NCBI GenBank assembly: GCA_965242665.1
Contig: OZ251484.1
Location: 935,064-999,063 of the forward strand
Length of the DNA stretch: 64,000 nucleotides
Reading direction: 5' to 3'
Origin: Dehalococcoidia bacterium
GTDB lineage: Bacteria > Chloroflexota > Dehalococcoidia > Lucifugimonadales > VXLM01
Part shown: piece after piece, positions 2,270-19,449 of the stretch
Position numbering within the stretch: the first letter of the stretch is position 1
Layout: each line of letters opens with the position of its first letter
Translations under genes and position numbers: made by a program
The notes under the pieces: generated by a model
What the model was told of the DNA's origin: nothing
Database searches by the model: none
What the model saw: only the letters and a program-made list of their open reading frames with translations

Positions 2270-3001
2270 ATGTCCACGCTCTCGAAAATCGAATGGACGG
2301 AGACCACTTGGAACCCCGTCACCGGATGCACCAAGATCAGCCACGGGTGCAAGCACTGCTACGCCGAGCGCATGACCAAGCGGCTCCAGGCTATGGGGAT
2401 GCCCAAATATCGGCGCGGGTTCGATGTCGCCATTCACGAATCCGTGCTCCAAGACCCCTTGAAGTGGAAGAAGCCGAGTATCGTCTTCGTGAACTCCATG
2501 AGCGACCTCTTCCACGAAGACGTCCCCGCGGAGTTCGTGCAATCGGTATTCGACGTCATGAATCGAGCGCAGATGCACACGTTCCAAGTGCTCACCAAGC
2601 GGCCCGGCAGGGTGAGCGCACTCGACGCGCGGCTCGACTGGGCCCCCAACATCTGGCTAGGCACAAGCATAGAGTCCGCGAGGTGGTTGGATCGGCTGGA
2701 CGCCTTGAAGTCCACGAGCGCCGCCACCAAGTTCCTCTCCCTGGAGCCGCTGCTCGGCCCTCTGCCCGGCCTTGACTTGTCGGGTATCGATTGGGTTATC
2801 GTAGGGGGAGAATCCGGACCCGGCGCGCGGCCCATAGACGCCGATTGGGTACGGGAAATTCGAGACAACTGCATTGACAGCGGCGTCCCGTTCTTCTTCA
2901 AGCAGTGGGGAGGCGTATTCAAGAAACGGACCGGCCGCATCCTAGACGGCCGCACGTGGGATCAGATGCCGCGCGCAGTCGAACGCCAAAACCCAGGATA
3001 G
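2270..3001 (+). CDS. DUF5131 / phage Gp37-Gp68 family protein (PF07505-like, three-Cys motif)
   Basis: 243-aa ORF starting 4 nt after the previous stop. The N-terminus 'IEWTETTWNPVTGCTKISHGCKHCYAERM' (C-x6-C-x2-C) is the signature start of the family. 'WVIVGGESGPGARP' and 'PFFFKQWGG' are also typical. Confidence 0.8.
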   Translation: MSTLSKIEWTETTWNPVTGCTKISHGCKHCYAERMTKRLQAMGMPKYRRGFDVAIHESVLQDPLKWKKPSIVFVNSMSDLFHEDVPAEFVQSVFDVMNRAQMHTFQVLTKRPGRVSALDARLDWAPNIWLGTSIESARWLDRLDALKSTSAATKFLSLEPLLGPLPGLDLSGIDWVIVGGESGPGARPIDADWVREIRDNCIDSGVPFFFKQWGGVFKKRTGRILDGRTWDQMPRAVERQNPG

Positions 3002-4490: not shown

Positions 4491-5507
4491 CTACAACCCA
4501 TTCTCGGCGAGGAAGCCGGCCAGGTCGGCCGTGCGGCATGAGTAGCCCCACTCGTTGTCGTACCACCCAACGACCTTGACCATGTTCCCCTCCATCGACA
4601 TCGTCGAGAGGCCGTCGATGATGCTGCTGTGCGGGTTCCTCACGATGTCGCTGCCGACGATGGGCTCTTCCGTATACTCGACGATGCCCGCCATCCTTCC
4701 ATCGGCCGCAGCCCGGTACGCGTCGTTGACATCCTCCGCAGAGGCGCTGGTATCGATCTCCGCAACGAAGTCCGTCACCGATCCCGTCGGCGTCGGCACC
4801 CGGAAAGCCATGCCGTGTATCTTGCCGGCCAGCTCCGGCAGCACGAGTCCGACTGCCTTCGCCGCCCCCGTGGTCGTCGGAATGATGTTGACCGCCGCTG
4901 ACCGAGCGCGGCGGAGATCGCTATGCACCTGGTCGAGTATCTTCTGATCGTTCGTGTACGAGTGCACCGTCGTCATCAAGCCGCGCCGCACCCCAAACGC
5001 GTCGTGGAGCGCGCGCGTCATGGTAGCGATGCAATTGGTCGTGCACGAGGCATTGGATATGACGTGGTGGACGCCGGGATCGTAGACGTCCTCGTTGACG
5101 CCCAGCACGATGGTCGCGTCCTCTCCAGTCGCAGGCGCGGATATGATGACCTTCTTCGCCCCGCCGGCCTTGTGCCCCGCAGCCGCGGAAGCATCCGTGA
5201 AGAACCCAGTCGACTCGACGACGATCTCCACCCCGTGCTCCGACCAGGGCAACTGGGAAGGGTCACGCTCCGCCATCACCTTGATCTCGTCGCCGTCTAT
5301 GACGATGGTATCATCGGAAGCGGCATCCACGGAGCCGGGGTATATCCCATAGTTCGAGTCGTACTTGAACAGATGGGCGTTCGTCCGAGTATCCGTCAGA
5401 TCGTTGACGGCGACGACCTGAAGCGTATCCGCGCGGCGCTCCCTGATAGCGCGCAGCACCTGCCGCCCGATCCGCCCAAATCCGTTGATCCCTACCCGAG
5501 TCACCAT
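4491..5507 (-). CDS. gap: type I glyceraldehyde-3-phosphate dehydrogenase
   Basis: 338-aa ORF. It has the '[15 protein letters not shown]' NAD-binding N-terminus, the active site 'SNASCTTNC' and 'WYDNEWGYS' near the C-terminus. Confidence 0.95.
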
Positions 5508-5614
5508 ACGCTCGTCTCCTCATACTCATGATGCTTTCCTAGAACGTCTACCAAGAGCATAGCCTACCACCCACGCACATTCAACCAATACCCGACTGCC
5601 CTGCCCCCGACCCC

Positions 5615-6023
5615 GTCACTCCCGCACCCTCCCACGTCATTCCCGTGAAGGCGGGAATCTCCCCCTCACGTCACTCACCCACCCATCATTCCCACAACCC
5701 TTTCGTCACTCCCGCAACCTCCCACGTCATTCCCGTGAAGGCGGGAATCTCCCCCTCACGTCACTCACCCACCCATCATTCCCACAACCCTTTCGTCACT
5801 CCCGCAACCTCCCACGTCATTCCCGCGAAGGCGGGAATCTCCCCCTCACGTCACTCACCCACCCATCATTCCCACAACCCTTTCGTCACTCCCGCAACCT
5901 CCCACGTCATTCCCGCGAAGGCGGGAATCTCCCCCTCACGTCACTCACCCACCCATCATTCCCACAACCCTTTCGTCACTCCCGCAACCTCCCACGTCAT
6001 TCCCGCGAAGGCGGGAATCTCCC
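5615..6023. repeat. 90-bp tandem repeat (about 4.5 copies), each unit carrying one REP-like hairpin
   Basis: Units start at 5615, 5705, 5795, 5885 and 5975 and are near-identical. Each contains GTCATTCCCG(T/C)GAAGGCGGGAATC (hairpins at 5636, 5726, 5816, 5906, 5996). The 201-aa ORF 5645..6250 is simply the translation of this array. Confidence 0.95.
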
Positions 6024-6029
6024 GAGCAT

Positions 6030-6227
6030 CGTATTTGACAAAACAGAACCCCCGTACTATCCTGAACCTAAAGACGACCCCGTCGAAGCCACAACCCAAG
6101 GAGACAATCATGCAATCCACAATCATCAATTCCCCGACTCGCCGTCGACGGAAATCGACACAATTCGACAGAACTCTACAAGACTCTACAGAAACTCGTG
6201 CCCGCCCGCGCGCGCGAGGCGAAGCAA
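6030..6227 (+). repeat. promoter-bearing repeated element, copy A (candidate small RNA)
   Basis: TTGACA (6035-6040), a 17-nt spacer and TATCCT (6058-6063). AAGGAG follows at 6098 with an ATG at 6110, then CAATC-type and CGACA-type short motifs. The element is homologous to 54794-54935 and 55003-55200. A REP hairpin lies immediately upstream and an inverted REP at 6228-6251. Confidence 0.6.
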
Positions 6228-6251
6228 GATTCCCGCCTTCGCGGGAATGAC
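6228..6251. repeat. REP-like palindromic element (inverted orientation)
   Basis: GATTCCCGCCTTCGCGGGAATGAC, with an 8-bp stem ATTCCCGC/GCGGGAAT and a 4-nt loop. Confidence 0.9.
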
Positions 6252-6332
6252 GTGGGTGGGCGGGGGAATGACGGAGGCGATCCGCGCCAGGTCTGTGTCA
6301 ATGAATCGGACGGAAGGCGCGCAGATAGGAAG

Positions 6333-6362
6333 TTGACAAGTCAACCGCGATTCTGATATAAA
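6333..6362 (+). promoter_or_regulatory. sigma70-type promoter of the FG-GAP gene (copy 1)
   Basis: TTGACA (6333-6338), an 18-nt spacer and TATAAA (6357-6362). The same sequence recurs upstream of the paralog at 13009-13039. Confidence 0.6.
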
Positions 6363-6370
6363 TGAACGTC

Positions 6371-6540
6371 AGTAAGGCCTAGTAAGGCCTAGTAAGGCCT
6401 AGTAAGGCCTAGTAAGGCCTAGTAAGGCCTAGTAAGGCCTAGTAAGGCCTAGTAAGGCCTAGTAAGGCCTAGTAAGGCCTAGTAAGGCCTAGTAAGGCCT
6501 AGTAAGGCCTAGTAAGGCCTAGTAAGGCCTAGTAAGGCCT
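6371..6540. repeat. 10-bp tandem repeat AGTAAGGCCT x17 between promoter and ribosome-binding site
   Basis: 17 perfect head-to-tail copies. Each unit contains the palindrome AGGCCT and TAA/TAG stops. The repeat is followed by ACAGCGAGGGGCAAGGAAAA-ATG (start at 6561). Confidence 0.98.
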
Positions 6541-6560
6541 ACAGCGAGGGGCAAGGAAAA

Positions 6561-9407
6561 ATGTCTACGACGTTCATTCGTTTGCGGTCGGTGGTTGCGC
6601 TGGGCGTTCTCGGAGTGGTTGCGTTGGTCGCGGGCTTCGCGACGGACGGGCTCGGGGGCGTCTTTTGGGCGTCGTCCTCAGGCGGCGCGGGCTCTGGTCC
6701 GTGGGCGAACTCGTTAGGGCCGCCAATCATCAATGGCCAAGGAGTCTCGTTGTCGAGCTCTGGCACCAACGACGGGTTTGGATATTCGATGGCCGTGAGT
6801 GCGGACGAAAGCACGATAGTCGTTGGAGCGCCCCTCGACGACGCGCGAGGGACTAACGCGGGCGCAGTGTACGTGTTCACGAAGCCGGCCACAGGATGGG
6901 GCAGCGGAACGGCGCCGACGGGCGTCAAACTCACCGCGTCCGGCAGCGCAACGGGGGACAATTTCGGGTTTTCGGTAGCGGTGAGCGGAGACGGAAGCAT
7001 GATCGTCGTCGGTGCGCCGGATGCCAACGTCCATCCTGTAACAGACGCCGGGAGGGCGTATGTGTTCACGAAGCCGGCCACAGGATGGGCGTCGTCGGCC
7101 GCGCAGGCAAATTTTAGAATGCACTCACAGGATCGGGACGATGACTTCGGGAGATCAGTAGCGGTGAGCGGAGACGGAAACACGATCTTCATCGGGGTGC
7201 CAGGAAGAGCTGTCGACAACCGTGGCTTGGTGTGTTTGCGAGGGAAGCCGTCAGGGGGGGCATGGACAAGTTTGAGTTGCGGTAGCTCCCACTTGCTAGG
7301 TCCTCGGATTGGCGGGCAGGAATTTGGGCACTCGTTGTCGATGAGCCCAGACGGAGACACGCTCGTCGTGGGAACGATTGCCGAGGCGGCGTATGTGTAC
7401 ACGAAGCCGGCCACAGGATGGTCGACGTCGGCCGCGTACGCAACACTCACCAAGGAGAGCTCGGTTGGAACCGATGAATTCGGGATGAGCGTGACGACGA
7501 GCGGGGACGGAGGCACTGTCGTCGTGGGAGCGGATGGGGTCGACTCGAACGGGGCGGCGTATGTGTTCACGAAGCCGGCCACAGGATGGGCGACGACATC
7601 GTCGGCAACGTCGACGGCGGCCAAGCTGACTGCGTCCGACGGGGCGGCAGGCAATGCTTTCGGGAAGTCGGTGTCGGCGAACGCAGACGGGAGCATGGTT
7701 GCAATAGGAGAGCCGGGCAGAGACAGCGGCCACACTAGCGGGACTGACACGGGCGCCGTGCATTTGTTCGCGGTGCCGCAGGGAGGGAAGTGGATCACTA
7801 CGACCACGGCGGATCCCCTGTCCGTAACGCTTCCCACGGAGACGATGCAAGGCGAGCGGGGACGCGAGGGTTCCATTGGCATTGGCGGAAATGTGGTGGT
7901 AACGGGTGCTTACCACAGCGGGGGGAGGACAGGCGCGTGGGTCTACAACACGATGGCTACGCCTCCGCCGACGCCGACACCCACGGTGACGCCCATACCG
8001 ACGGCAACATCCATACCGCCGACACCAACAGGCGGAGATGGCGGAGAAGTCACGCCGCCGCCGACACCAACGCCAACGCCCACGGCGACGCCGGACGTGA
8101 TACGACCGGAGGTCGGACTGTCGACGAACTTCCTCACGTTCACAGCCGCCCAAGGTGGAGACGGTCCGCCGGCGCAGACGTTCACGGTATGGAACACGGT
8201 GCGGCAGACAGACATGCCGTTCACCCTGTCGTCGAACGCGAGCTGGCTGTCGTTCTCGCCGAGGACGGCGTCGTCGAACAGTCCGCAGGCGCGGGTGTCC
8301 GTGAGAGTGTCCGCGAACGCTTCCGGGCTGGCTGCTGGAACGCACAGGGGCCGGATATCCATCAGCGCGCCGGGCGCGGAGAATACGCCGCGGTCGGTGT
8401 TCGTCACGCTCATCATAACATCGCCGACGTCCGCGAGGGCGGCAGTGACGGCGAACGAGACGACGGAGATCACGACCGGCGATTTGACCTTGCAGGTGGT
8501 AGTGCCGGCTGGGGCCGCGCCGTCGAACGTGGATATACAAGTGACGAAGTTGGACGTCTCATCGCCCGGCGCGCCGCCGGCCGATGATGAGCGGGTGACG
8601 CTCGCCGCGGAGGTTGAGACGTTCGCGTCTGGCAGCACCACGCCGACGCCGATGACGTACTCGCCGGGGGTGGATCTGCGGTTTGCGCTGCCGGCGGCCG
8701 ATGCGACGGCGTGCGCCGAAGGGCGCGTGCGAGTGTATCGGGTGGACGGCGATGAGTGGATGCTGCTGGAGCATCGGTGCGAGACGGACGCTGCCGGCAC
8801 GGTGTGGGCGGTATCCACGCTGACGAACTTCAGCACGTACGTCATGACGATAGACGATACCCCTGCAACGCCGACGCCGGCACCGACCGCGCCTCCGATT
8901 ACGACGCCGGTACCGACGGCCACATCCGCGCCAACGGCCATACCCACGGCCACGCCCGTACCGGCAACCGCGACGCCAGTACCGACGGCGACACCTGTGC
9001 CAGCAACCGCTACTCCTGTGCCCACGGCGACACCTGTGCCAGCAACCGCTACTACTGTGCCCACGGCGACATCCAGGCCAACGGCCATACCGACGTCTAC
9101 GCCCAGGCCGGCAACCGCGACGCCTGTGCCGACGGCCACATCCGCGCCGACAGCCGTGCCGACTGCGACGCCGGTGCCTGCGACCGCGACGCCTATGCCC
9201 GCGGCGACGTTCACGCCTGTGCCTCCGGCGACTGCGGTGACCCAGGCGGTTCCCGATCCGACGTCGACGCCGGTGGCTCAGCCGGAAGTTGAAGACGACG
9301 GCGGGTTGAACATGGTCGTGATCCTCGCGGTGGTTCTCGTAGTGGTGATTGCCGGTGCGGTCGCTGCCGGCGTGTACGTGCGGAGGGGCGGACTCGGCGG
9401 GGGGTAG
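6561..9407 (+). CDS. FG-GAP repeat (integrin-alpha-like beta-propeller) surface protein with Pro/Thr linkers, an Ig/BACON-like module and a C-terminal membrane anchor
   Basis: 948 aa. N-terminal hydrophobic segment 'VVALGVLGVVALVAGFA'. At least 7 repeats of 'FG.SVAVSGDG.T.VVGAP...GAAYVFTKPATGW'. PTPTPT linkers. Module 'LSTNFLTFTAAQGG..WLSFSP..VSVRVSANASGLAAGTHRGRISISAPG'. C-terminal TM segment 'MVVILAVVLVVVIAGAVAAGVYV' followed by RRGG. Confidence 0.8.
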   Translation: MSTTFIRLRSVVALGVLGVVALVAGFATDGLGGVFWASSSGGAGSGPWANSLGPPIINGQGVSLSSSGTNDGFGYSMAVSADESTIVVGAPLDDARGTNAGAVYVFTKPATGWGSGTAPTGVKLTASGSATGDNFGFSVAVSGDGSMIVVGAPDANVHPVTDAGRAYVFTKPATGWASSAAQANFRMHSQDRDDDFGRSVAVSGDGNTIFIGVPGRAVDNRGLVCLRGKPSGGAWTSLSCGSSHLLGPRIGGQEFGHSLSMSPDGDTLVVGTIAEAAYVYTKPATGWSTSAAYATLTKESSVGTDEFGMSVTTSGDGGTVVVGADGVDSNGAAYVFTKPATGWATTSSATSTAAKLTASDGAAGNAFGKSVSANADGSMVAIGEPGRDSGHTSGTDTGAVHLFAVPQGGKWITTTTADPLSVTLPTETMQGERGREGSIGIGGNVVVTGAYHSGGRTGAWVYNTMATPPPTPTPTVTPIPTATSIPPTPTGGDGGEVTPPPTPTPTPTATPDVIRPEVGLSTNFLTFTAAQGGDGPPAQTFTVWNTVRQTDMPFTLSSNASWLSFSPRTASSNSPQARVSVRVSANASGLAAGTHRGRISISAPGAENTPRSVFVTLIITSPTSARAAVTANETTEITTGDLTLQVVVPAGAAPSNVDIQVTKLDVSSPGAPPADDERVTLAAEVETFASGSTTPTPMTYSPGVDLRFALPAADATACAEGRVRVYRVDGDEWMLLEHRCETDAAGTVWAVSTLTNFSTYVMTIDDTPATPTPAPTAPPITTPVPTATSAPTAIPTATPVPATATPVPTATPVPATATPVPTATPVPATATTVPTATSRPTAIPTSTPRPATATPVPTATSAPTAVPTATPVPATATPMPAATFTPVPPATAVTQAVPDPTSTPVAQPEVEDDGGLNMVVILAVVLVVVIAGAVAAGVYVRRGGLGGG

Positions 9408-9420
9408 GTTCGCGCGTAGG

Positions 9421-9560
9421 GGGGAATGACGGGGCAGGTTGACCGACCGCAACTCCGTCACTCCCCCACCCATGCCCAGGATGGATTCCCGCCTACGCGG
9501 GAATGACGGAGGCAGGTGTGGGAATGACGTGGGAGGGTGCGGGAATGGCTGGGGCGGTCG
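9421..9560. repeat. REP-like cluster (one full hairpin plus GGGAATGAC half-sites)
   Basis: Full hairpin GATTCCCGCCTACGCGGGAATGAC at 9484-9507. It is flanked by repeated GGGAATGACG(G/T) half-sites. Confidence 0.9.
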
Positions 9561-9568
9561 ATTCGCAG

Positions 9569-10447
9569 CTAGAGGGCGCCGCGCTTTCTGTGGGTGTTCG
9601 ATTCCCTCGGGACTGCTTTGCGCTTTCGGGGGGAGAGGCGGAGGGCGCTGCGGATGGAGGTGTAGGTCAGCACTATGAAGAATACGGCGGCAGAGAAGAG
9701 CACGACGGAGGGGCCTGAGGATACGTCGACGTAGAAGCTGGCGTAGAGGCCGCCGAGTCCGCAGAATGCGCCGATGGAGACGGATAGGAGGAGCATCTTG
9801 CCGAAGTCGTTCGTGAGGAGGCGCGCGGATACGGGGGGGATGACGATGGCGGCGGCAATCATGGTAACGCCGAGCACTTGGAGAGATACGACGATGACGG
9901 CTGCGAGCATGAGGGCGAAGCCGGTGTCTACCCATCCTGTGGGCACTCCATAGAATCGGGCGACCTCGGGCTCGAATGTGGTAAAGAGTAGGTATTTGTA
10001 GCCGACGAATACGGCGGCGGCGGCGGCGGCGCCCACTATGAGGATCGCGGCGACGTCTGCATTGTCGACGGCGAGGATGTTGCCGAAGAGTGCGGCGTCG
10101 AAGCTGCGGGTGAAGCTCTTGAATCTGCTTATCAGGGCGATGCCGAGCGCAAAGCTGGACGTGGTGACGATTCCGATGGCGGCGTCTTCGCCTATGCTGC
10201 GCTTTCGAGTTGCAAGGTTTATGAGCATGGCGGATACGAAGCCCCAGACGCTTGCGCCAACGAAGAAGTTGATGGACATGACGTAGCTGGCGACTGCGCC
10301 GCCGAAGATGGCGTGGGAGAGTCCGTGCCCGATGTAGGCCATGCGGCGGAGGACGATGTAGACGCCGATGAGTCCGCAGAGGGCGCCGGCGAGGGAGGCG
10401 ACGATCAGGCCTCTGACGAAGAATTCGTATTCGAAGGGTGCGAGCAT
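9569..10447 (-). CDS. metal (Zn/Mn-type) ABC transporter permease
   Basis: 292-aa polytopic membrane ORF, last gene of the regulator/SBP/ATPase/permease operon. It resembles the ZnuB/MntB family (for example 'GHGLSHAIFGG' and 'DAAIGIVTTSSFALG'). The last ~30 aa run into a REP cluster and may be an over-extension. Confidence 0.8.
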   Translation of the reverse strand: MLAPFEYEFFVRGLIVASLAGALCGLIGVYIVLRRMAYIGHGLSHAIFGGAVASYVMSINFFVGASVWGFVSAMLINLATRKRSIGEDAAIGIVTTSSFALGIALISRFKSFTRSFDAALFGNILAVDNADVAAILIVGAAAAAAVFVGYKYLLFTTFEPEVARFYGVPTGWVDTGFALMLAAVIVVSLQVLGVTMIAAAIVIPPVSARLLTNDFGKMLLLSVSIGAFCGLGGLYASFYVDVSSGPSVVLFSAAVFFIVLTYTSIRSALRLSPRKRKAVPRESNTHRKRGAL

Positions 10448-10449
10448 TT

Positions 10450-11280
10450 CTACTGCCCTTCGTTCTCGCGTCCGTTGCGCCCGAAGAAGTGGGGGGTTTC
10501 AGCGACGAGTGTCATACCTTGGTATTGGGTTACGTGGAGGTCGGCGCCGTAGGTGAGCTTGAGGTTAGCTGGGGTGAAGACGTCGTTGGGCGCGCCCTCC
10601 GCGACGATGCTGCCGTTCATGCAGACGACCCAGGGCAGGTGCGCGGCCACCGCATTGATTTCGTGGGTGGTCATGACTATGGTCACGTCTTGGTGGTTGA
10701 GTTCGTCGAGGAGGTGCATGACTTCGTCGCGGGTCTTGATGTCGACGCCCATGGTGGGTTCGTCGAGTAGCAGCAGCTTTGGGCTGCTGACGAGCGCTCT
10801 GGCGAGGAATGCGCGCTGCTGCTGTCCGCCGGACAGGTCACGGATGTGTCGTTTGGCGAGGCGGGCGATGCCGAGGCGCTGCATGATTTCTTCGGCATTT
10901 TCCTTGTCCGCGCGCCGATGCCAGGGAAATGCCCAGTTTTCGGAGGTTCGCCCCATCATGACGACCTGCTCGACGGTGACTGGGAAGTTCCAGTCTATAG
11001 TTTCGAGTTGGGGGACGTAGCCCACGATGGGTTTGCTGTGTGCGATGGATCGTCCATCGACGCGAATTTCGCCGTCGAACAGGCTGGCTGCGCCAAGGAT
11101 GGCTCTGAGCAGCGTGGTCTTTCCGGAGCCGCTGGGTCCGAGGATGCCGACGAAGTCGCCGTGGTTGACGGTGAGGTCGATGTTTTGGAGGATTGGCTCG
11201 CCGTCGTAGCCGCACGTTACGTCTATCATCTGGACGATGAGCTCTTCTCTGTCGTATTGGTGAGGAGTGGGGTGAAGCAT
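10450..11280 (-). CDS. metal ABC transporter ATP-binding protein
   Basis: Walker A 'GPSGSGKTTLL', ABC signature 'LSGGQQQRAFLARAL' and Walker B 'LLLLDEP'. Its start overlaps the upstream SBP stop by 1 nt. Confidence 0.9.
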   Translation of the reverse strand: MLHPTPHQYDREELIVQMIDVTCGYDGEPILQNIDLTVNHGDFVGILGPSGSGKTTLLRAILGAASLFDGEIRVDGRSIAHSKPIVGYVPQLETIDWNFPVTVEQVVMMGRTSENWAFPWHRRADKENAEEIMQRLGIARLAKRHIRDLSGGQQQRAFLARALVSSPKLLLLDEPTMGVDIKTRDEVMHLLDELNHQDVTIVMTTHEINAVAAHLPWVVCMNGSIVAEGAPNDVFTPANLKLTYGADLHVTQYQGMTLVAETPHFFGRNGRENEGQ

Positions 11281-12287
11281 TATTCTGGGTAGTTGGCGTT
11301 GCTGTCGTCTTCGAATACGGGGCCGGAGTCGAAGCCTTCGAGGGGAGCGACGCTGCCTCCGAGGGCTGGGGCGATGATCTCCATATTCGAGACCATGAGT
11401 CCCATGTAGGTGTGGCGCGGGTTGCCGTGGGAGCCTGGCAGGTCGTCATCGCGGAGTTCGTCTATGAACTGTGCGCCGCTTTCTCTGGCGATTTGCTCCA
11501 TGACGGGGCTGGGGAAGACTTCGGAGCCGAATACGGCGGGAACTTTGGCTGCGCGTATTTGGTCTATGAGGTTGGCGACTTCGCGGGCGGAGGGTTCGGT
11601 GAAGTCGGAGGGTTGGACGGCGCCGATTATCTCCATTCCGTACCGCTCGGCGAAGAAGGGGAAGGAGTCATGGTAGGTTAGTAGCTTGCGGTTTTCCGGG
11701 GGTATGGTTGCGATTACGTCGGCTATCCTCCTGTCGAGATCGACGATGCGCGCCTCGAGTTTCTCATAGTTTGCGGCGTAGTAGGCGGCATTGTCGGGGT
11801 CGAGGGCGGAGAGCTCGCCGCGGATGAGGTCGGCGTACTCTAGGGCGAGGATGGGGTCGGTCCAGAGGTGCGGGTTGGGGTGTCCGCCGGATTCCGGGAA
11901 GGAGACGTCGAATACCCACTCGGCGCGGGTGATGGTGTTGTCTCCGAGGGTTAGGATGACGGCGTCCGACTTCTTGTTTGCCTCGGCCATTTCTCGGAAG
12001 GGTTCTTCGAGGAAGAGTCCGTTCAAGACTATCAGATCTGCCTGCGATACGATTCTGGCGACGGATGGGGGAGGCTCGAAGGTGTGAGAATTCACGCCCT
12101 CGGGGACTATCCCATCTAGGCGGATTCTAGGGCCGCCGACGTTCTCTACCAGGCTGGTAATCGGCGAGACCGTGGAGACCACCCGCAGGATGTCTGGGGG
12201 AGAATCGTCGCTGCCGCCGTCGATCGAGCAGGCGACGAGAGCCAGCGCGGCAACCAAGAGCACGGCGGAAATCAAGGACGGGTTCAC
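11280..12287 (-). CDS. metal ABC transporter substrate-binding lipoprotein (ZnuA/TroA cluster-9 family)
   Basis: Lipobox 'LALVACS'. Typical 'VVSTVSPITSLVENVGG', 'NPHLWTDP' and 'LLTYHDSFPFFAERYG' segments. Confidence 0.85.
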   Translation of the reverse strand: MNPSLISAVLLVAALALVACSIDGGSDDSPPDILRVVSTVSPITSLVENVGGPRIRLDGIVPEGVNSHTFEPPPSVARIVSQADLIVLNGLFLEEPFREMAEANKKSDAVILTLGDNTITRAEWVFDVSFPESGGHPNPHLWTDPILALEYADLIRGELSALDPDNAAYYAANYEKLEARIVDLDRRIADVIATIPPENRKLLTYHDSFPFFAERYGMEIIGAVQPSDFTEPSAREVANLIDQIRAAKVPAVFGSEVFPSPVMEQIARESGAQFIDELRDDDLPGSHGNPRHTYMGLMVSNMEIIAPALGGSVAPLEGFDSGPVFEDDSNANYPE

Positions 12288-12315
12288 GATGGCCGGAGGG
12301 GGGCGGGACGCTGGA

Positions 12316-12822
12316 TCATCGATTCATCTCCACCTTGACGCGCGGCCATCTTCCATCCCTACCCTGCTCATTCGAAATGCCATCTACCGTGGAGACGCTC
12401 GTCGGAGCGCAGTCCGCGCACCTGCCAAATACGGCGATATGGTCGACGTCTGCCTCGAAGCCGTAGTCGTCCAGGATCTCTGCGCCGAGGCTGGCCATAT
12501 AGGCATGGTCCAGCTTGGTGAGGCTGCCGCAGTCGCGGCAAATCAGGTGATGGTGCCGGTCTTGGCGCAGCCATTCGTAGATCATTTCGCCTGCGCCGAC
12601 GTCGGTCTCGGAGATCAAGCGCAGCTTCTTGAGCACGCTCAGGGTGCGGTACACCGTCGAGGAGTCGATGTACGGATATGATTCACGGACGCGGTCGAGT
12701 ATTTCGGATGCAGTCATGTGACCGTCCGCGTGTCGGAGGGACGAGAGTATGAGAACGCGCTGGGGGGTCAAGCGGCGCCCGGAATCACGGAGGGTTTGGA
12801 CGGAGTGGTCTTCGCAGCTCAT
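12316..12822 (-). CDS. Fur-family metalloregulator (Zur-like by context)
   Basis: 'LTPQRVLILSSL..HMTASEILDRV' winged helix, 'HHHLICRDCG' and 'CADC' zinc sites. I prefer the ATG at 12822 over the TTG at 12849 that opens the tracked ORF. Confidence 0.8.
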   Translation of the reverse strand: MSCEDHSVQTLRDSGRRLTPQRVLILSSLRHADGHMTASEILDRVRESYPYIDSSTVYRTLSVLKKLRLISETDVGAGEMIYEWLRQDRHHHLICRDCGSLTKLDHAYMASLGAEILDDYGFEADVDHIAVFGRCADCAPTSVSTVDGISNEQGRDGRWPRVKVEMNR

Positions 12823-12970
12823 CGTTATTGCAAGTGGTTGCAGAAGCAAGGATACAGCATCGGCTGAGTAGTGTCAATAGCACGTCGGGGGTGGTTGTTC
12901 TCCCGGGGCAGTTCTGCGTTGGTCGATCGCGGCGCGGGTATGCGTGTGGATGCGGGGACGTCGGGCGCTG

Positions 12971-12994
12971 GATTCCCGCCTGCGCGGGAATGAC
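12971..12994. repeat. REP-like palindromic element
   Basis: GATTCCCGCCTGCGCGGGAATGAC. Confidence 0.9.
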
Positions 12995-13008
12995 GTAGAC
13001 AAAGGAAG

Positions 13009-13039
13009 TTGACAAAGTCAACCGCGATTCTGATATAAA
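13009..13039 (+). promoter_or_regulatory. sigma70-type promoter of the FG-GAP gene (copy 2)
   Basis: TTGACA (13009-13014), a 19-nt spacer and TATAAA (13034-13039). It is almost identical to 6333-6362. Confidence 0.6.
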
Positions 13040-13047
13040 GGAACGTC

Positions 13048-13067
13048 AGTAAGGCCTAGTAAGGCCT
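13048..13067. repeat. 10-bp repeat AGTAAGGCCT x2 (short allele of the 6371-6540 array)
   Basis: Two copies followed by the same ACAGCGAGGGGCAAGGAAAA-ATG leader as the paralog. Confidence 0.95.
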
Positions 13068-13087
13068 ACAGCGAGGGGCAAGGAAAA

Positions 13088-15913
13088 ATGTCTACCAGGT
13101 TCGTTCGTTTGCGGTCGGTCGTTGCGCTGGGCCTTCTCGGAGTGGTTGTCGCGCTGGCTGCGGGTTTCGCGACGGACGGGCTGGGGGCGTCGTCCTCAGG
13201 CGGCGGCGCGGGCTCTGGTTCGTGGGAGAACTCGTACGGGCCGCCAATCATTGAGGGCGCCGGACTCTTTCTGTCGAACTCTGCCGGCAGGTTTGGAACT
13301 TCGGCGGCCGTGAGTGCGGACGGAAGCACTATCGCCGTTGGAGCGCCCAATAACCCGAATCCCGGGGTATACGTGTTCACGAGGCCGTCCGGCGGATGGG
13401 GCGACGGAACGACGCCGACGGTCGTCAGAATCGCCGGGTCCGACACCGTATCGGGGCACGGTTTCGGGAGATCGGTAGCGGTGAGTAGAGACGGAAGCAC
13501 GATCGTCGTCGGGGCACCGGAGGTCGGTACTTTGGGCTCATGGAACCGGGGCGCGGCGTATGTGTTCACGAAGCCGTCCGGGGGATGGTCGACGTCGGCG
13601 ACATCCGCAAAATTTGCTCATTCGAACCCGAATCAGCACGATAGGTTTGGAAACTCGGTAGCGGTGAGCGCAGACGGAAACACGGTCGTCGTCGGGATAA
13701 AAGGGAGAGACCAAAGCGGCGTAACCAACCCCGGTGAGGCGTATGTGTTCACGAAGCCGTCCGGGGGATGGGTGGATGCGAATCAGACGGCGGGTGTCAG
13801 GCTAACTCGCAGTACTGCGAACCAGGAATTTGGGAAATCGGTGTCGATGAGCGAGGACGGCGACACGATCGTCGTGGGAACGGTTGCCGGGGCGGCGTAT
13901 GTGTACACGAAACCGGATGGAGGATGGTCGACGTCGGCCGCGTTCGCAACACTTACACAGAGAGACGCGACTGGAAACGATCGATTTGGGGAGAGCGCGA
14001 CGATGAGTGGGGACGGAGGCACTGTCGTCGTGGGAGCGTTTCAGGCCGACGGCAACGCGGCCACAAGCGGGGCGGCATATGTGTTCACGAAGCCGGCCTC
14101 AGGGTGGATGGCGACGTCGACGTCGGCCAAGCTGACGGCGGGCGACGGGGCGACAGGCAATCAATTCGGTCGGTCGCTGTCGGCGAACGCAGACGGGAGC
14201 ATGATTGCAATTGGAGAGCCGAACAGAGGCAGCGGGGCGGACAGGGGCGCCGTGCATCTGTTCGCGGTGCCGCAGGGGGGAAAGTGGATCACTACAACCA
14301 CGTCGGATCCCCTGTCCGTAACACTTCCCACGGAGACGGTGCTAGGCGAGCGAGGGGCCGAGGGATCCACCATTGGCATTGGCGGAAATGTGGTCGTAGT
14401 GGGAGCTCACAGCTCCGGGGTGGGGGGGAGGACCGGCGCGTGGGTCTACAACACGAAGCCTACGCCACCACCACCGACGGCAACACCCACACCGACGCCC
14501 ATACCGACGGCAACATCCATACCGCCGACACCAACAGGCGGAGAAGTCGCGCCGACACCAACACCAACGCCCACAGCGACGCCGGACGTGATACGACCGG
14601 AGGTCGGCCTGTCGACGAACTTCCTGACGTTCACGGCCGCGCAGGGCGGAGATGCGCCGGCGGCGCAGACGTTCACGGTGTGGAACACGATGCGGGATAC
14701 GGACATGCCGTTCACGCTGTCGTCGGACGCGAGCTGGCTGTCGTTCTCTCCGAGGACGGCGTCGTCGAACAGTCCGCAGGCGCGGGTGTCCGTGAGGGTA
14801 TCGGCGAACGCTTCCGGGCTCGCTGCGGGGACGCATAGGGGCAGTATCGCCATCAGCGCGCCAGGAGCGGAGAATACGCCGCGGATGGTGTTCGTCACGC
14901 TTGTCGTGACATCGCCGACGTCCGCGAGGGCGGCGGTGACGACGAACGAGGAGACGGAGATCACGACAGGGGATTCGACCGTTCAGCTGGTAGTGCCGGC
15001 TGGGGCCGCGCCGTCGAACGTGGATATACAAGTGACCAAGTTGGACGCCGCATCACCTGGCGCGCCGCCGGCCGATGCGGAGCGGGTGACACTCGCTGCG
15101 GAAGTGGAGACGTTCGCGTCCGGCAGTACCACGCCGACGCCGATGACCTACCCGCGCGGAGTTGATCTGCGGTTTGCGCTGCCGGCGGCCGATGCGTCTG
15201 CGTGCGTGGAGGGGCGCGTGCGGGTGTACTGGGTGAACGACGGCGAATGGACGCTGCTGGAGCATCGGTGCGAGACGGACGCTGCCGGCACGGTGTGGGC
15301 GGTGTCCACGCTGACACACTTCAGCACGTACGTCATGACGATAGACGACGCGCTTCCGACGCCGACGCCAGAGCCGACAGCGCCTCCGACGGCTACGCCA
15401 GTACCGACGGCCACATCCGCGCCGACAGCCGTGCCCACGGCAACGCCAGTGCCGGCAACCGCTACGCCAGTGCCGGCAACCGCTACGCCAGTGCCGACGG
15501 CCATACCGACGGCGACGCCTCGACCGGCAACCGCTACTCCCATACCGACGGCGACGCCTCGACCGGCAACCGCTACTCCCATACCAACGGCCAGGCCAAC
15601 GGCGACGCCCAGGCCTCCGACGTCTACGCCGGTGCCGACGGCCACATCCGTGCCAACGGCTGTGCCCACGGCAACGCCAGTGCCTCCAACTGCGACGCCC
15701 ATGCCCGCGGCGACGTTCACGCCTGTGCCTCCGGCGACTGCGGTGACTCAGGCCGTTCCCGAGCCGACGTCGACGCCGGTCGCTGAACCGGAGGTTGAAG
15801 ACGGCGGCGGGTTGAACATGGTCGTGATCATTGCGGTGGTTGTCGTGGTGGTGATTGCGGGTGCGGTGGCGGCCGCTGTGTACGTGCGGAGGGGCGGACT
15901 CGGCGGGGGGTAG
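13088..15913 (+). CDS. FG-GAP repeat surface protein, paralog of 6561..9407
   Basis: 941 aa with the same architecture as the paralog. The C-terminal two-thirds are nearly identical to the paralog, and the N-terminal propeller is clearly more diverged. Confidence 0.8.
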   Translation: MSTRFVRLRSVVALGLLGVVVALAAGFATDGLGASSSGGGAGSGSWENSYGPPIIEGAGLFLSNSAGRFGTSAAVSADGSTIAVGAPNNPNPGVYVFTRPSGGWGDGTTPTVVRIAGSDTVSGHGFGRSVAVSRDGSTIVVGAPEVGTLGSWNRGAAYVFTKPSGGWSTSATSAKFAHSNPNQHDRFGNSVAVSADGNTVVVGIKGRDQSGVTNPGEAYVFTKPSGGWVDANQTAGVRLTRSTANQEFGKSVSMSEDGDTIVVGTVAGAAYVYTKPDGGWSTSAAFATLTQRDATGNDRFGESATMSGDGGTVVVGAFQADGNAATSGAAYVFTKPASGWMATSTSAKLTAGDGATGNQFGRSLSANADGSMIAIGEPNRGSGADRGAVHLFAVPQGGKWITTTTSDPLSVTLPTETVLGERGAEGSTIGIGGNVVVVGAHSSGVGGRTGAWVYNTKPTPPPPTATPTPTPIPTATSIPPTPTGGEVAPTPTPTPTATPDVIRPEVGLSTNFLTFTAAQGGDAPAAQTFTVWNTMRDTDMPFTLSSDASWLSFSPRTASSNSPQARVSVRVSANASGLAAGTHRGSIAISAPGAENTPRMVFVTLVVTSPTSARAAVTTNEETEITTGDSTVQLVVPAGAAPSNVDIQVTKLDAASPGAPPADAERVTLAAEVETFASGSTTPTPMTYPRGVDLRFALPAADASACVEGRVRVYWVNDGEWTLLEHRCETDAAGTVWAVSTLTHFSTYVMTIDDALPTPTPEPTAPPTATPVPTATSAPTAVPTATPVPATATPVPATATPVPTAIPTATPRPATATPIPTATPRPATATPIPTARPTATPRPPTSTPVPTATSVPTAVPTATPVPPTATPMPAATFTPVPPATAVTQAVPEPTSTPVAEPEVEDGGGLNMVVIIAVVVVVVIAGAVAAAVYVRRGGLGGG

Positions 15914-15914
15914 G

Positions 15915-16360
15915 TTGCCCGCGTAGGGGGGAATGCCTCGCTCCTGCGCCTTTGCGGAGAGGTAGCCCGTAGGTTCGCGCGCGTATGGGGGAATGACGGG
16001 GCAGGGCTTAGACCGCACCCACTCCGTCACTCCCCCGCCCAATAACCGCGGTGGATTCCCGCCTACGCGGGAATGACGGGAACAGGGGCGGGAATGTAGA
16101 CAGACAGGCATGACGGTAGACAGGGTAGATCGTACACCCCTACCCCCGTCATTCCCCCATCCATGCCCACGATGGATTCCCGCCTACGCGGGAATGACGG
16201 GAACAGGGACGACCGCACTCCTACTACCGTCACTCCCGCACCCGGTCTACGTCATGCCTGCACCCAACCACGTCACTCCCGCACCCGGTCTACGTCATGC
16301 CTGCACCCAACCACGTCACTCCCACAGCCACCCACGTCATTCCCGCGAAGGCGGGAATCT
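15915..16360. repeat. REP-like cluster with a 43-bp direct duplication
   Basis: Hairpins at 16054-16077 and 16175-16198 (CTAC loop) and at 16336-16359 (GAAG loop, opposite orientation). The 43-bp unit GTCACTCCCGCACCCGGTCTACGTCATGCCTGCACCCAACCAC is repeated at 16229 and 16272. Confidence 0.9.
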
Positions 16361-16517
16361 CCTCCTCGCGGCACGCGTTGCCCCCAACTCGCAGCAGATT
16401 CGACGCACCACTTGGAACCACCCTCCCCGAACCCCCATCAATACATCGAACTGCCGCTTGTCGATTCACGACCGGGCGGCTATCATTGAAGAGTATCCTT
16501 GACACAATGGGTGATGT

Positions 16518-17357
16518 ATGGAACTTGACGAAACACTTCGGCGTCTCAATATGGATGGGTTCTGCGTCATCGACGGCGTGATTCCGTCCGACGATGTGGA
16601 TCGAACGCGCGGCGAGGTCGAGCAAGCGGTCATGCGGAGCCGCCAGACGAGCGAAGAGATGCAGACGAAGATCCGCTCGCAGGGCCATCGCGTCGGGGCG
16701 GTCGGGGTCGCATCGGTCGGGGGGCTGATCAATCATGTGCCGACCTTTGGGAAGTACCTGGCCGATCCCCGCATCACCGCTCCGTGCGAGAGCATCTTCG
16801 GGCCGTACGTGCGCGTATCGTCCGTCGGGGCAGTCATGAATTTTCCCGGCAACGCGCGCGGGTACTGGCATTCGGACTGGCCGTTCAATCAAACGGTCGC
16901 CTCTCACATTCCCGCGCCGTACGCGGACGCGGTGTTGCACGTTACCGCCATCTTCATGCTGTCCACCTTCAACGAGGAAACAGGCGGAACATTGGTCGTG
17001 CCAGGTAGTCACAGATCCAGCACGAATCCCTCCGGCGATACCACAATCGACCGCGACTCCCCCTATCCGACGGAGATCAACGCGACCGGAACCGCAGGCA
17101 GCGTCCTGTTGTTCGACAGCCGTCTATGGCACTCCGTGGCCACGAATACCAGCGACCGACCCCGCACAGCGGTCATCGCACGGTATGCCCCATGGTGGCT
17201 AAACCTTACCGTCCAGCAGCCCGGCACGCCAGACCATACTCAGATCGTAGCGGAGACCGGAGGCAAGCCAAGCGAATCTCCGCTCGTCCAACGACAGGTG
17301 TTCGACATCTTGCCAGACGCGGCAAAGCAGCTGTTCCGCCACTGGGTCGAAGCATGA
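16518..17357 (+). CDS. phytanoyl-CoA dioxygenase (PhyH) family Fe(II)/2-oxoglutarate oxygenase
   Basis: 'MDGFCVIDGVIP', H-x-D in 'GYWHSDWP', 'GGTLVVPGSH' and the distal His in 'FDSRLWHSVATNTSDRPR'. Confidence 0.7.
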   Translation: MELDETLRRLNMDGFCVIDGVIPSDDVDRTRGEVEQAVMRSRQTSEEMQTKIRSQGHRVGAVGVASVGGLINHVPTFGKYLADPRITAPCESIFGPYVRVSSVGAVMNFPGNARGYWHSDWPFNQTVASHIPAPYADAVLHVTAIFMLSTFNEETGGTLVVPGSHRSSTNPSGDTTIDRDSPYPTEINATGTAGSVLLFDSRLWHSVATNTSDRPRTAVIARYAPWWLNLTVQQPGTPDHTQIVAETGGKPSESPLVQRQVFDILPDAAKQLFRHWVEA

Positions 17358-17400
17358 ATGCAACGCAATCACGGAACATCCCCCAGCAACTCGAGACTGT

Positions 17401-17838
17401 ATGATCAGCTTCGCATTCGACTATTACCTCATGGTCGTCGTGGCTGCCGGCGGCGTCTTGCAGATCGCCGCTTCAATCGGTGAACTCGACGCACTCCTCT
17501 TCTTCAAGTCCAAGATCCGCGCCCGCGCCCTGGGCACAGCCTTGGCGGCGGCGGGACTAATCCTGTTCTTCGGAACCGCCGAACGAAATATCAATGATTA
17601 CGACGGCGGATTGGACGGCAACTTCCAACTGATGCTCTTCCTGCTGGGAACTATCACCGCCCTAGCCTTGACGGCGGCAGCGACCTCGCTCGTCAATATG
17701 GACATGAACGGCCCGTCGCGCATCGAACAAGGCATCCACTCCCTCAAACGGACCACCTACGCCAGATCGCTGGCTCATAACCTTCTCCACGTACGAAATC
17801 ACTGGCGGACATGGACGAAACCATACTTCTTTGGTTGA
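17401..17838 (+). CDS. hypothetical membrane protein
   Basis: 145-aa ORF with 3-4 hydrophobic helices. I recognise no motif. Confidence 0.5.
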   Translation: MISFAFDYYLMVVVAAGGVLQIAASIGELDALLFFKSKIRARALGTALAAAGLILFFGTAERNINDYDGGLDGNFQLMLFLLGTITALALTAAATSLVNMDMNGPSRIEQGIHSLKRTTYARSLAHNLLHVRNHWRTWTKPYFFG

Positions 17839-18380
17839 ACGGCTTCGTTGGCAAAGCCCCCGCATTCGACGCCGTCATGAAACTCGTCGTAAGCGACTAC
17901 CTCATCCCAGTCATGCTAGCGCTCGCCCTGCTGACACTGTGGTTCGGAGGCGACTCGACCAACCGCCAAAAGTACCAACTCGGAGTCATCGCAGCCGCGA
18001 TCTCGATTGCCATCAGCAACGGCTCGGTCGAGCTGCTGAACAACTTCTACTTCCGCGACAGACCATTCGTCGATCATCAGGTATCGCTACTCTTCTATGA
18101 GCCCACCGATTCCTCGTTTCCAGCGAACTCGGCGGCGCTGGCGCTGGCCATTGCAACGTCGGTGTGGATAATCAACCGACGCGCAGGCACGGCGCTGTGG
18201 TGCCTCTCGTGGCTGTACGCCTTCTCGCGGGTCTACGCAGGAGTGCACTACCCTATCGACGTGGTCGCAGGCGGACTAATAGGCATCGCCGCCGCATGGA
18301 CAGCGCACGGAGTAGCAAAGCTGCTCCGCCCAATGTTCGAGGTCGTACTAAAGGCTGCGCGCGTCGTCCTGCTGGCCTAG
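17811..18380 (+). CDS. PAP2-family phosphatase
   Basis: PAP2 motifs 'SFPANSAA' and 'SRVYAGVHYPIDVVAGGLIG' in a polytopic membrane protein. It overlaps the preceding ORF by 28 nt, so the start is uncertain. Confidence 0.8.
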   Translation: MDETILLWLNGFVGKAPAFDAVMKLVVSDYLIPVMLALALLTLWFGGDSTNRQKYQLGVIAAAISIAISNGSVELLNNFYFRDRPFVDHQVSLLFYEPTDSSFPANSAALALAIATSVWIINRRAGTALWCLSWLYAFSRVYAGVHYPIDVVAGGLIGIAAAWTAHGVAKLLRPMFEVVLKAARVVLLA

Positions 18381-18450
18381 GTATTCTCTCCCCCACTCTA
18401 TGATATGATTGAACTCGGTCGGAGCAAGCGCAATGAACTAGGGGGACCGA

Positions 18451-19389
18451 GTGGCTCATATCGTGAATAGGCGGTTGCGCTGCATTGCTCTCGCCGCTCT
18501 CTGTATCGCCGCCATGGGATGCGGAGACACCGGAGTTGGATCGTCGGTGCCGCCAGCCTCTCCGACCGTACCGCAGCCAACCGTTACGCCCCTGGCATCT
18601 CCGACTGTACCGCAGCCAACCGTTGCACCGGTGGCCTCCCCTGCAGCCATGCCAACGGCCTCCCCCGCTCCCGCCTCAACGAACGACGGCGCGGCGGACG
18701 GCGATCCACCAACCGCGCAGGAATACTACGAAGCCGGCTCTGCATACGCGGACGCAGGCGAAAACGAGTTCGCACTCGAACTGTTCGCACGCGCCATTGA
18801 GATCGACCCCAATCTTAGCGACGCATACAACGACCGCGGCGCAGCCTATATCGCCATGGGTCGGTACGACCTGGCCGAAGCAGACTTCAATAAGGCCGTC
18901 GAACTCGTTCCAGACGATCCCGACTACTACAACAACCGCGGTGTCGCCCGCATGTCCATGTTCGACGTCGACGCCGCGATCGACGACTTTACTTCCGCAA
19001 TCGAACTCGACCCCGCAATGGTGGACGCGCACCTAAACCGCGCAATGGTCTACGCGAGACTCCAGCGCTACGACGAAGCGCTCACCGACCTGGGCAGGAT
19101 ATTGGAGATCGATTCCGAGTACGAAGAGATCCACAGCTATCGGGCAAGCATATTCATGGCGCTCGGACAGCCTGCGGATGCAGTCGAGGAGCTAGATCTG
19201 CTCATCGCATCCACGCCCCCCAACGTCGACGCCTACGCGAACCGCGCCATCGCGCTCGTAGCGCTCGGCGAGGATGAACGCGCACAGATAGACTTCGACA
19301 ACGCCGTCCAACTGGGCGCAGACCCACAACGCCTCCAAACAACGCTCGACCGGGTACGCCTCGATCGCGACTCTTCGACCGAGCCGTAG
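18451..19389 (+). CDS. tetratricopeptide-repeat lipoprotein
   Basis: Lipobox 'IAAMGCG', a Pro/Thr-rich linker with a duplicated 'SPTVPQPTV', then about 6 TPR units ('AYNDRGAAYIAMGRYDLAEADFNKAVEL' and similar). Confidence 0.8.
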   Translation: MAHIVNRRLRCIALAALCIAAMGCGDTGVGSSVPPASPTVPQPTVTPLASPTVPQPTVAPVASPAAMPTASPAPASTNDGAADGDPPTAQEYYEAGSAYADAGENEFALELFARAIEIDPNLSDAYNDRGAAYIAMGRYDLAEADFNKAVELVPDDPDYYNNRGVARMSMFDVDAAIDDFTSAIELDPAMVDAHLNRAMVYARLQRYDEALTDLGRILEIDSEYEEIHSYRASIFMALGQPADAVEELDLLIASTPPNVDAYANRAIALVALGEDERAQIDFDNAVQLGADPQRLQTTLDRVRLDRDSSTEP

Positions 19390-19449
19390 CATCCCCGAAG
19401 GGTTGCCCAGGCATCACGGCAAACGACCGACGAAAGGGAAGTCTGCCTC

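Follow-up and report, generated by a model that had tools for sequence, protein, structure and literature searches.

A self-complementary decamer of variable copy number in the leaders of paralogous FG-GAP surface-protein genes: a candidate expression dial in a Dehalococcoidia bacterium

To our knowledge, repeat-driven contingency loci have been described almost entirely from host-adapted pathogens, and most are built from units of 1 to 7 bases. In the multigene vlhA family of variable surface proteins in Mycoplasma gallisepticum, each paralog carries its own upstream (GAA)n array, the length of which decides the paralog that is expressed. The nearest known counterpart of the locus described herein is the (ATCTTTC)n array of Haemophilus influenzae hmw1A/hmw2A, whose copy number ranges from 9 to 28 and differs between paralogs and between strains (PMC2424069); this array is transcribed within the 5' untranslated region (5'UTR), where it forms a long hairpin that is cut by RNase III, and expression is inversely related to repeat number (PMC12721329). 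In Moraxella catarrhalis, the (AGAT)n array in the 5'UTR of uspA2, present in 6-23 copies depending on the strain, tunes expression rather than serving as an off-switch (Attia and Hansen 2006, as summarized in PMC4679880). Repeat length likewise grades expression at the poly-T rheostat of Helicobacter pylori sabA and at the G-repeat of tlpB, a target of the small RNA (sRNA) RepG (PMC4081817 and PMC8295292), and a translational or post-transcriptional role has been proposed, from sequence alone, for the TAACTGA heptamer repeats of marine Beggiatoaceae, cyanobacteria, and Bacteroidetes (PMC4679880). Bacterial repeats of 6-9 nt have been called rarely reported (PMC4692102). A 64,000-nucleotide stretch of a Dehalococcoidia bacterium (GenBank assembly GCA_965242665.1, contig OZ251484.1, positions 935,064 to 999,063; hereafter the window) presents an arrangement resembling that of hmw1A/hmw2A, namely two paralogous genes for large surface proteins of the FG-GAP type, each with its own tandem array, here of the decamer AGTAAGGCCT, upstream of the start codon.

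The two arrays hold 17 and 2 units (6371-6540, as delimited by Tandem Repeats Finder (TRF), and 13048-13067), just as an earlier note on this DNA, made from the letters alone, had stated. Across the 64-kb window, the decamer is matched 19 times with at most one mismatch, always within these two arrays, against 1.35 matches expected, and none of 100 shuffles reached 19. All 17 units of the longer array are identical to one another, and the related arrays introduced below are perfect as well. The note's reading of both genes as FG-GAP paralogs is borne out by Pfam, and its view of the array as non-coding by direct reading of the sequence, wherein all six frames are closed by TAG or TAA; the palindrome AGGCCT that it had pointed out indeed forms the core of every unit. 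As the leaders share an identical end and carry 17 and 2 units, respectively, they differ by exactly 150 nt, again in agreement with the note. The features of the two loci are as follows.

6332..6345, + strand: copy-1 palindrome GTTGACAAGTCAAC containing the candidate -35 hexamer TTGACA (6333-6338); kept in copy 2 and in the related locus L007, with one mismatch in the related locus L010
6354..6362, + strand: candidate extended -10 of copy 1, TG-a-TATAAA (hexamer 6357-6362), 18 bp past the -35; hexamer invariant in four loci
6368..6371, + strand: predicted transcription start of copy 1, 6-9 nt past the -10, placed by promoter geometry
6371..6540, + strand: array of 17 perfect AGTAAGGCCT units (TRF: period 10, 17.1 copies, 100% matches, score 342)
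6541..6560, + strand: copy-1 leader end ACAGCGAGGGGCAAGGAAAA, 20 nt, followed by ATG; candidate Shine-Dalgarno sequences GAGGGG (6546-6551) and AAGGA (6553-6557)
6561..9407, + strand: FG-GAP surface protein copy 1, 948 aa (Pfam FG-GAP_2, E = 6e-41)
13008..13022, + strand: copy-2 palindrome GTTGACAAAGTCAAC containing the candidate -35 hexamer TTGACA (13009-13014), by sequence reading
13031..13039, + strand: candidate extended -10 of copy 2, TG-a-TATAAA (hexamer 13034-13039), with a 19-bp spacer, by sequence reading and alignment
13048..13067, + strand: array of 2 AGTAAGGCCT units, sufficient for one hairpin, by sequence reading and folding
13068..13087, + strand: copy-2 leader end, the same 20 nt as in copy 1
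13088..15913, + strand: FG-GAP surface protein copy 2 (P0005), 941 aa (Pfam FG-GAP_2, E = 3e-41)

Several familiar classes of element were considered for the array and set aside. A restriction-modification target was rejected because the rest of the window does not avoid AGGCCT, which is neither enriched nor depleted there (14 observed, 10.5 expected). Dispersal of the kind seen in repetitive extragenic palindromic (REP) sequences or bacterial interspersed mosaic elements is not found, the decamer being confined within the 64 kb to the two leaders, and beyond it to the leaders of related loci, from the flanks of which it is absent throughout; nor is the array a REP-type element. The truly dispersed family of the window has another sequence, CGTCATTCCCGC...GCGGGAATGACG. 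An intrinsic-terminator scanner returned no match in 6300-6600, where AGUA or ACAGCG follows the hairpins in place of a U run, and the array hairpins are not terminators for want of that U-tract. Across the whole window, Rfam covariance models gave no match at gathering score and a tRNA search found none. The repeat sequence as such was also searched for in the literature, with no result.

Upstream of both arrays lies a shared block, AGGAAGTTGAC..GTCAACCGCGATTCTGATATAAA, at which similarity between the two copies begins exactly, with nothing aligning upstream of AGGAAGTTGAC. The note had described this block as an identical promoter; the block is indeed shared, but it is not strictly identical. 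In copy 1 the -35 palindrome reads GTTGAC-AA-GTCAAC, whereas copy 2 has GTTGAC-AAA-GTCAAC; because of this difference in its centre (AA at 6339-6340, AAA at 13015-13017), the -35/-10 spacer is 18 bp long in the former and 19 bp in the latter. TATAAA is followed by T in copy 1 but by G in copy 2. Among the related loci, L007 and L010 have AA as well. The A-run represents a second, small length polymorphism, which may influence promoter strength too, and the palindrome over the -35 could be an operator. The block reads as a sigma-70-type promoter (TTGACA, 18 or 19 bp, TGnTATAAA), accepted on its conservation across four loci rather than on a consensus scanner, which misses it because its rule demands T at position 6 of the -10, here A. 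In the four-locus alignment, which includes the array-less L010, both hexamers are invariant while the spacer and flanks drift. As the conserved elements end 8 bp ahead of the array and a start 6-9 nt past the -10 would fall at or near the array's first base, the array would occupy the extreme 5' end of the mRNA and is probably transcribed. At the other end of the leader, GAGGGG is more likely than AAGGA, which sits very near the ATG, to be the ribosome-binding site, since its counterpart in L007 is GAGGTGA, a strong match to the anti-Shine-Dalgarno sequence.

Related loci were obtained by protein search and contig look-ups, which yielded 12 full-length homologues with 62-83% identity. Six loci are listed below with their leaders and with their protein identity to copy 1 in that search.

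L007 (P0002, 83%): same promoter, 3 units
L008 (P0003, 77%): contig starts inside the array, with 5 full units visible (at least 5)
L009 (P0006, 73%): contig starts inside the array, with 5 full units visible (at least 5)
L013 (P0004, 74%): contig starts inside the array, with 5 full units visible (at least 5)
L014 (P0011, 66%): contig starts inside an array of a 14-bp unit (CAGTAAGGCCTAGG, 4 or more copies), past which comes a degenerate 10-mer
L010 (P0007, 69%): promoter kept, without an array

The array is a genuine variable-number repeat, with 2, 3, at least 5, and 17 units at homologous loci, the differences being those between loci and between strains; the earlier note's suggestion of a variable-number repeat, and the comparison among relatives that it had proposed, are answered in the affirmative. 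The unit sequence is the same in all six 10-bp arrays (17, 2, 3, and three of at least 5 units). The contigs of L008, L009, and L013 open with 51-56 nt of pure array. The 5.3 kb downstream in L008 are 97% identical to window positions 16424-21689, which identifies L008 as the same chromosomal locus as the 2-unit copy in a close relative; one locus thereby has 2 units in the window and at least 5 in L008. The protein of L013 is 93% identical to copy 2, again with at least 5 units versus 2. Since L007 (3 units) and L013 (at least 5) come from one sample, as do L010 and L014, paralogs within one community differ in array length. The note had treated the expanded repeat as a feature of one paralog, a view that does not hold: an array of its own was present on each paralog examined in the repeat-bearing lineage, which makes the array a family-wide device.

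Expansion has, moreover, recurred on the same leader segment with two unit lengths, 10 and 14 bp. The 14-bp unit CAGTAAGGCCTAGG has the same core and contains the 8-bp palindrome GCCTAGGC, and self-complementarity persists across the two unit types, being stronger in the longer one, while the 10-bp period does not. A 13-nt core, CAGTAAGGCCTAG, is identical in L014 despite the divergence of the remaining leader, a hint that the unit sequence may be under constraint. The leader of L010 aligns to a single degenerate unit (AACAA-GCCA versus AGTAAGGCCT) in which the AGGCCT palindrome is lost; the only leader without the palindrome is thus the leader without an array. Searching GTDB representative genomes and JGI metagenomes for a tandem pair of units brought up unrelated matches only, consisting of an intergenic site in Porticoccaceae and low-GC satellites free of open reading frames (ORFs). 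Among the latter, L004 and L006 (JGI contigs Ga0209278_1010370 and Ga0209175_10018418; 35-38% GC, ORF-free) carry several long degenerate 10-bp satellites. One of these, with about 77 copies of the consensus AGTAAGG(C/T)CT, is probably eukaryotic, and its likeness to the decamer looks coincidental.

RNA folding, which the note had recommended, predicts helices between units, as it had anticipated: two 10-nt units form a 6-bp hairpin (-10.3 kcal/mol), two 14-nt units an 8-bp hairpin (-16.3 kcal/mol), and the 2-unit leader a single hairpin, while the 17-unit leader is predicted to reach -101.3 kcal/mol (z = -4.0 versus dinucleotide shuffles). The minimum-energy fold of the latter is an imperfect rod of 6-bp AGGCCU:AGGCCU helices between 4x4 loops, drawn from an extremely degenerate ensemble whose centroid has no array pairs. 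The repeat RNA is thus predicted to take part in a stable leader structure. An influence on the ribosome-binding site that scales with copy number finds no such support. Predicted accessibility of the site is flat for arrays of two or more units, save for an odd/even alternation; under one folding setting, even arrays leave the site open (0.78) and odd arrays yield 0.3-0.4. When other lengths of downstream sequence are folded, this parity effect disappears or changes direction, and in the context of copy 2 it almost vanishes. The idea that the array masks the ribosome-binding site in a graded manner was therefore rejected, and a translational mechanism is not supported, because accessibility does not otherwise change with copy number and the sign of the parity effect depends on the length of coding sequence folded.

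The proteins encoded downstream suit a locus of this kind. Copies 1 and 2 are 71% identical by BLAST and 78% identical over aligned columns, and copy 1 has an N-terminal signal/anchor, Pro/Thr-rich linkers, a C-terminal transmembrane helix, and an RRGG tail. A structure model built from 13 family members is confident only at residues 55-465, an all-beta propeller (predicted local distance difference test scores mostly 60-90), with a C-terminal helix at 919-941; its best matches in the PDB are integrin alpha chains (E = 4e-13). Taken together with the signal-like segment, the linkers, and the hydrophobic C-terminal helix with its tail, the model points to FG-GAP proteins that are membrane-anchored, outward-facing, and integrin-like. 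Identity within the family falls to 50-67% in the propeller blades (alignment columns 120-300), versus 86-91% elsewhere, the conserved portion comprising the signal peptide, C-terminal domains, stalk, and anchor. The contig bearing the exact GAPDH protein of the window (4491-5507) also encodes copy 2 and P0001, a third paralog with 83% identity to copy 1; at least three FG-GAP paralogs are present per genome. As expected of a contingency locus, the product is a surface protein that appears to be under diversifying pressure. A literature search for FG-GAP proteins in sponge Chloroflexi found nothing.

The FG-GAP genes do not track their loci. The flank of L008 is 97% identical to the copy-2 locus, yet the L008 protein shares only 81% identity with copy 2; the protein of L013 is 93% identical to copy 2, yet its downstream genes differ. 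Cassette exchange between paralogous FG-GAP loci is therefore suggested. At the GAPDH-mfd junction, L011 (87% nucleotide identity over the GAPDH region) has GAPDH followed by mfd and no FG-GAP gene, L014 has an FG-GAP gene directly upstream of mfd, and the window has, after GAPDH (5508-16400), a block made up of an FG-GAP gene, znu genes, and a second FG-GAP gene; FG-GAP cassettes therefore appear to have been gained, lost, or moved there.

The explanation favored here, to which we would assign a probability of roughly 0.55, is that the array constitutes a slippage-prone contingency locus in a transcribed leader, serving by analogy with hmw1A/hmw2A and uspA2 as an expression dial for each surface-protein paralog. 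Perfect, hairpin-capable direct repeats would misalign during replication, such that units are gained or lost and each paralog in each strain comes to have its own copy number. Lying at or near the predicted start, the array would be transcribed and would fold into tandem AGGCCU:AGGCCU hairpins or a long imperfect rod; copy number would then set the length of the leader and the amount of double-stranded RNA, which, as at hmw1A/hmw2A and uspA2, may adjust by degrees how much mRNA is made, how it is processed, or how stable it is. The outcome would be a diversified amount of each variable surface protein displayed per cell. That long arrays lower expression, as in hmw, is a guess. A non-coding leader array is unlikely to bring about on/off phase variation; a graded dial is the better analogy.

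Despite its attractions, a number of considerations weigh against the dial. Its functional steps are all inferred, and the predicted accessibility of the ribosome-binding site is flat beyond the odd/even alternation. The proposed promoter has a -10 hexamer without the final T, a base that is usually invariant. Conservation of the unit could stem from gene conversion among paralogs that exchange sequence, and the contig breaks at the array, though compatible with frequent, reversible length change within a population, could stem from sequence shared between paralogs, an explanation against which the directly read 51-56 nt of pure array at the contig ends must be set. Finally, a hairpin-forming direct repeat could expand neutrally.

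Neutral expansion is the main rival, possible but on balance doubtful, and the readings based on DNA-binding sites, a parity switch, or an assembly artefact are minor beside it. It holds that at most one leader hairpin, made by two units and perhaps serving as a 5' stem-loop, is functional, and that a slippage-prone palindromic repeat otherwise drifts without meaningful effect on expression. The 2-unit leader does form exactly one predicted hairpin, the predicted openness of the ribosome-binding site is essentially independent of copy number from two units upward, the array is dispensable insofar as the array-less L010 keeps both promoter and gene, and top-strand DNA hairpins, predicted at -6.1 kcal/mol per unit pair, would favor slippage. 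Drift nevertheless sits uneasily with the long arrays of five of the seven repeat-bearing loci (copy 1, L008, L009, and L013, with at least 5 units, and L014, with at least 4 of 14 bp), with the second array type that arose on the same core in another lineage, and with the perfect conservation of that core where the remaining leader has diverged; moreover, the best-studied comparable leader arrays, those of hmw and uspA2, do alter expression.

A further, more elaborate and decidedly improbable reading regards the array as a digital counter made of self-pairing RNA. Copy number would set the length of a 5' rod, parity would decide whether a unit stays free, and the count would be read by a double-strand-specific nuclease or by 5'-end-dependent decay; transcription or processing of the RNA might in turn feed back on the instability of the repeat, as has been argued for hmw. 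Were this true, a symbiont would possess a heritable, reversible, per-paralog dial for showing integrin-like proteins to its host.

A quite unlikely alternative places the function in DNA, with the array serving as regulator sites downstream of the promoter (a roadblock or filament) and copy number setting the strength of repression. The palindromic AGGCCT core is typical of sites for dimeric DNA-binding proteins, the array begins right past the -10, its 10-bp period is near one helical turn, and a second palindrome overlaps the -35; however, no regulon is visible, the decamer being absent elsewhere in the window and from the flanks of related loci, AGGCCT is neither enriched nor avoided outside the arrays at the counts given above, and no linked candidate regulator is present, the adjacent Fur-family gene going with the znu operon. 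The helical argument, which the note had advanced to place any bound factor on one face of the DNA, fails in its own right. The helical repeat of DNA is 10.5 bp, the array drifts by almost a full turn over 17 units, and the 14-bp unit of L014 breaks the phasing altogether; binding on one face was rejected on the strength of the L014 array.

A parity or double-stranded RNA switch is less probable still. Even arrays would be fully self-paired and odd arrays would leave one unit free, such that a one-unit slip toggles the fold, or else a long array would be a substrate for RNase III. Predicted accessibility does alternate with parity in most contexts, the 17-unit minimum-energy structure is an imperfect double-stranded rod, and RNase III has its precedent in hmw, but the sign and size of the alternation hinge on an arbitrary 3' cut-off and all but disappear for copy 2, the degenerate ensemble has a centroid without array pairs, and 6-bp helices between 4x4 internal loops make a poor classical RNase III substrate. 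That the 17 units are a mis-assembled short repeat is scarcely credible: short-read assemblies do fail at the array, as the four related contigs ending inside it (L008, L009, L013, and L014) attest, but the window's exact GAPDH lies on a 3,476,543-bp contig, which suggests, without establishing, a long-read assembly spanning the 170-bp array, long arrays occur independently in those four other assemblies (at least 5 units, or at least 4 of 14 bp in L014), and at worst the exact count would be off, with the existence and variability of the array standing.

Other elements surround the two genes. A REP-like hairpin lies upstream of copy 1, as follows.

6229..6252, strand unassigned: REP-like hairpin ATTCCCGC-CTTC-GCGGGAAT then GACG (CGTCATTCCCGC family), preceding the copy-1 promoter by about 80 bp

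A counterpart precedes copy 2 (12972-12995), and others precede the promoters of L007 and L010. The family is abundant in the window and brackets both FG-GAP genes, taking the form of the hairpin ATTCCCGC-N4-GCGGGAAT with flanking CGTCA/TGACG and of 18-21-bp arrays such as CCCACGTCATTCCCGCACCCT; its intergenic sites include 5614-6023, 9497-9547, 16228-16346, 32895-33205, 38462-38598, 52299-52562, 54654-54967, and 55233-55352. The note had linked the decamer to an 81-bp tandem of this kind through a related octamer, AGGCCTAG. The octamer does recur there, at 52400 and 52481, but the link is attributable to chance: because both sites lie in two copies of one 81-bp unit, they amount to a single independent event versus 0.72 expected.

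A further dispersed module occurs at 6035-6250 (+ strand) and about 54990-55200 in the window, at about 13060-13300 in L010, and at about 9527-9682 in L011. It comprises a promoter-like TTGACA-17-TATCCT, AAGGAGACAATC, ATG (TTG in L010), and CAATCC/CAATCATCAATTCCCC; the window copy at 6035 opens a 46-codon arginine-rich ORF that ends in the REP hairpin. This copy points at FG-GAP copy 1 and may act as an additional promoter upstream of it; alternatively, it may be a small gene or a mobile module.

Between the two FG-GAP genes (9569-12849, - strand) lies an operon for znuA, an ABC ATPase, and an ABC-3 permease, together with a Fur-family regulator (12316-12849) that is divergent from the copy-2 promoter; in L010, too, the znu operon and Fur gene are found a few kb upstream of the FG-GAP gene. 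No Fur- or Zur-box-like site was recognised in the FG-GAP promoter. The window also holds genes of restriction-modification type, namely an N6/N4 methylase with an HNH domain (48-1376), a DUF5131 gene (2270-3001), a 1740-aa Mrr_cat_2/ResIII helicase (33353-38575), and a type I specificity subunit (52841-54640). The palindrome ATGCAT is missing from the window (0 observed, 7.9 expected), which is also depleted of GGTACC, GCATGC, and TGCGCA.

The host, an uncultured marine bacterium, probably lives in association with sponges; the PANK22 label of related ENA assemblies probably denotes the sponge metagenomes of Pankey et al. 2022. For DnaK, a SAR202-cluster metagenome-assembled genome, at 78% identity, is the sole named close relative, which points, if weakly, to a probable member of the Chloroflexota. 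Contingency-locus logic would be extended to an uncultured marine lineage and to a family of integrin-like surface proteins in which the ligand-facing propeller is hypervariable and cassettes appear to move between loci. If the dial works, it would furnish a concrete mechanism by which a symbiont population diversifies its display to host cells or phages, and the self-complementary 10-/14-base unit would represent a new leader-RNA architecture for the control of expression. Because short-read assemblies break at the arrays, such loci suffer systematic truncation in metagenome-assembled genomes.

Among the known systems, vlhA differs in having a trinucleotide repeat upstream of the promoter and a strict on-state at one length. 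The likeness to hmw1A/hmw2A extends from the arrangement of the arrays to the proteins, the polymorphic portion being the receptor-binding part in hmw and the propeller blades here. The unit is, however, 10 bp (14 bp in a relative) as opposed to 7 bp and of unrelated sequence; it is self-complementary, such that the array would pair with itself, whereas the hmw array pairs with a separate G-rich arm; and counts descend to 2-3, as opposed to a natural minimum of 11 in hmw. The product, an FG-GAP propeller anchored in the membrane through its C-terminus, contrasts with the two-partner-secreted adhesins of hmw, and the host is an uncultured marine bacterium rather than a human pathogen. RNase III action and an effect on expression, both known for hmw, are hypothetical here.

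With uspA2, the locus shares a tandem repeat between the transcription start (predicted here) and the start codon of a surface protein; uspA2 has a non-palindromic tetranucleotide before a single gene and an effect that was measured experimentally, in contrast to the paralog family and the analogy-based effect considered here. The H. pylori cases resemble it in placing a repeat near the promoter or in the leader of a surface or host-interaction gene, but they involve homopolymeric tracts acting through promoter geometry and sRNA pairing, neither of which was identified here. The TAACTGA repeats are likewise perfect direct repeats with forward-frame stop codons, lie just upstream of start codons in environmental non-pathogens, and often terminate the contigs of relatives; those heptamers occupy about 170 loci per genome and overlap the ribosome-binding site, whereas the decamer is confined to one gene family and lies upstream of a normal ribosome-binding site. 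In summary, the features that appear to distinguish this locus are its self-pairing 10-/14-bp unit, the position of the array right at the start of the transcript as predicted, its low counts, the type of protein concerned, and the lineage of its host.

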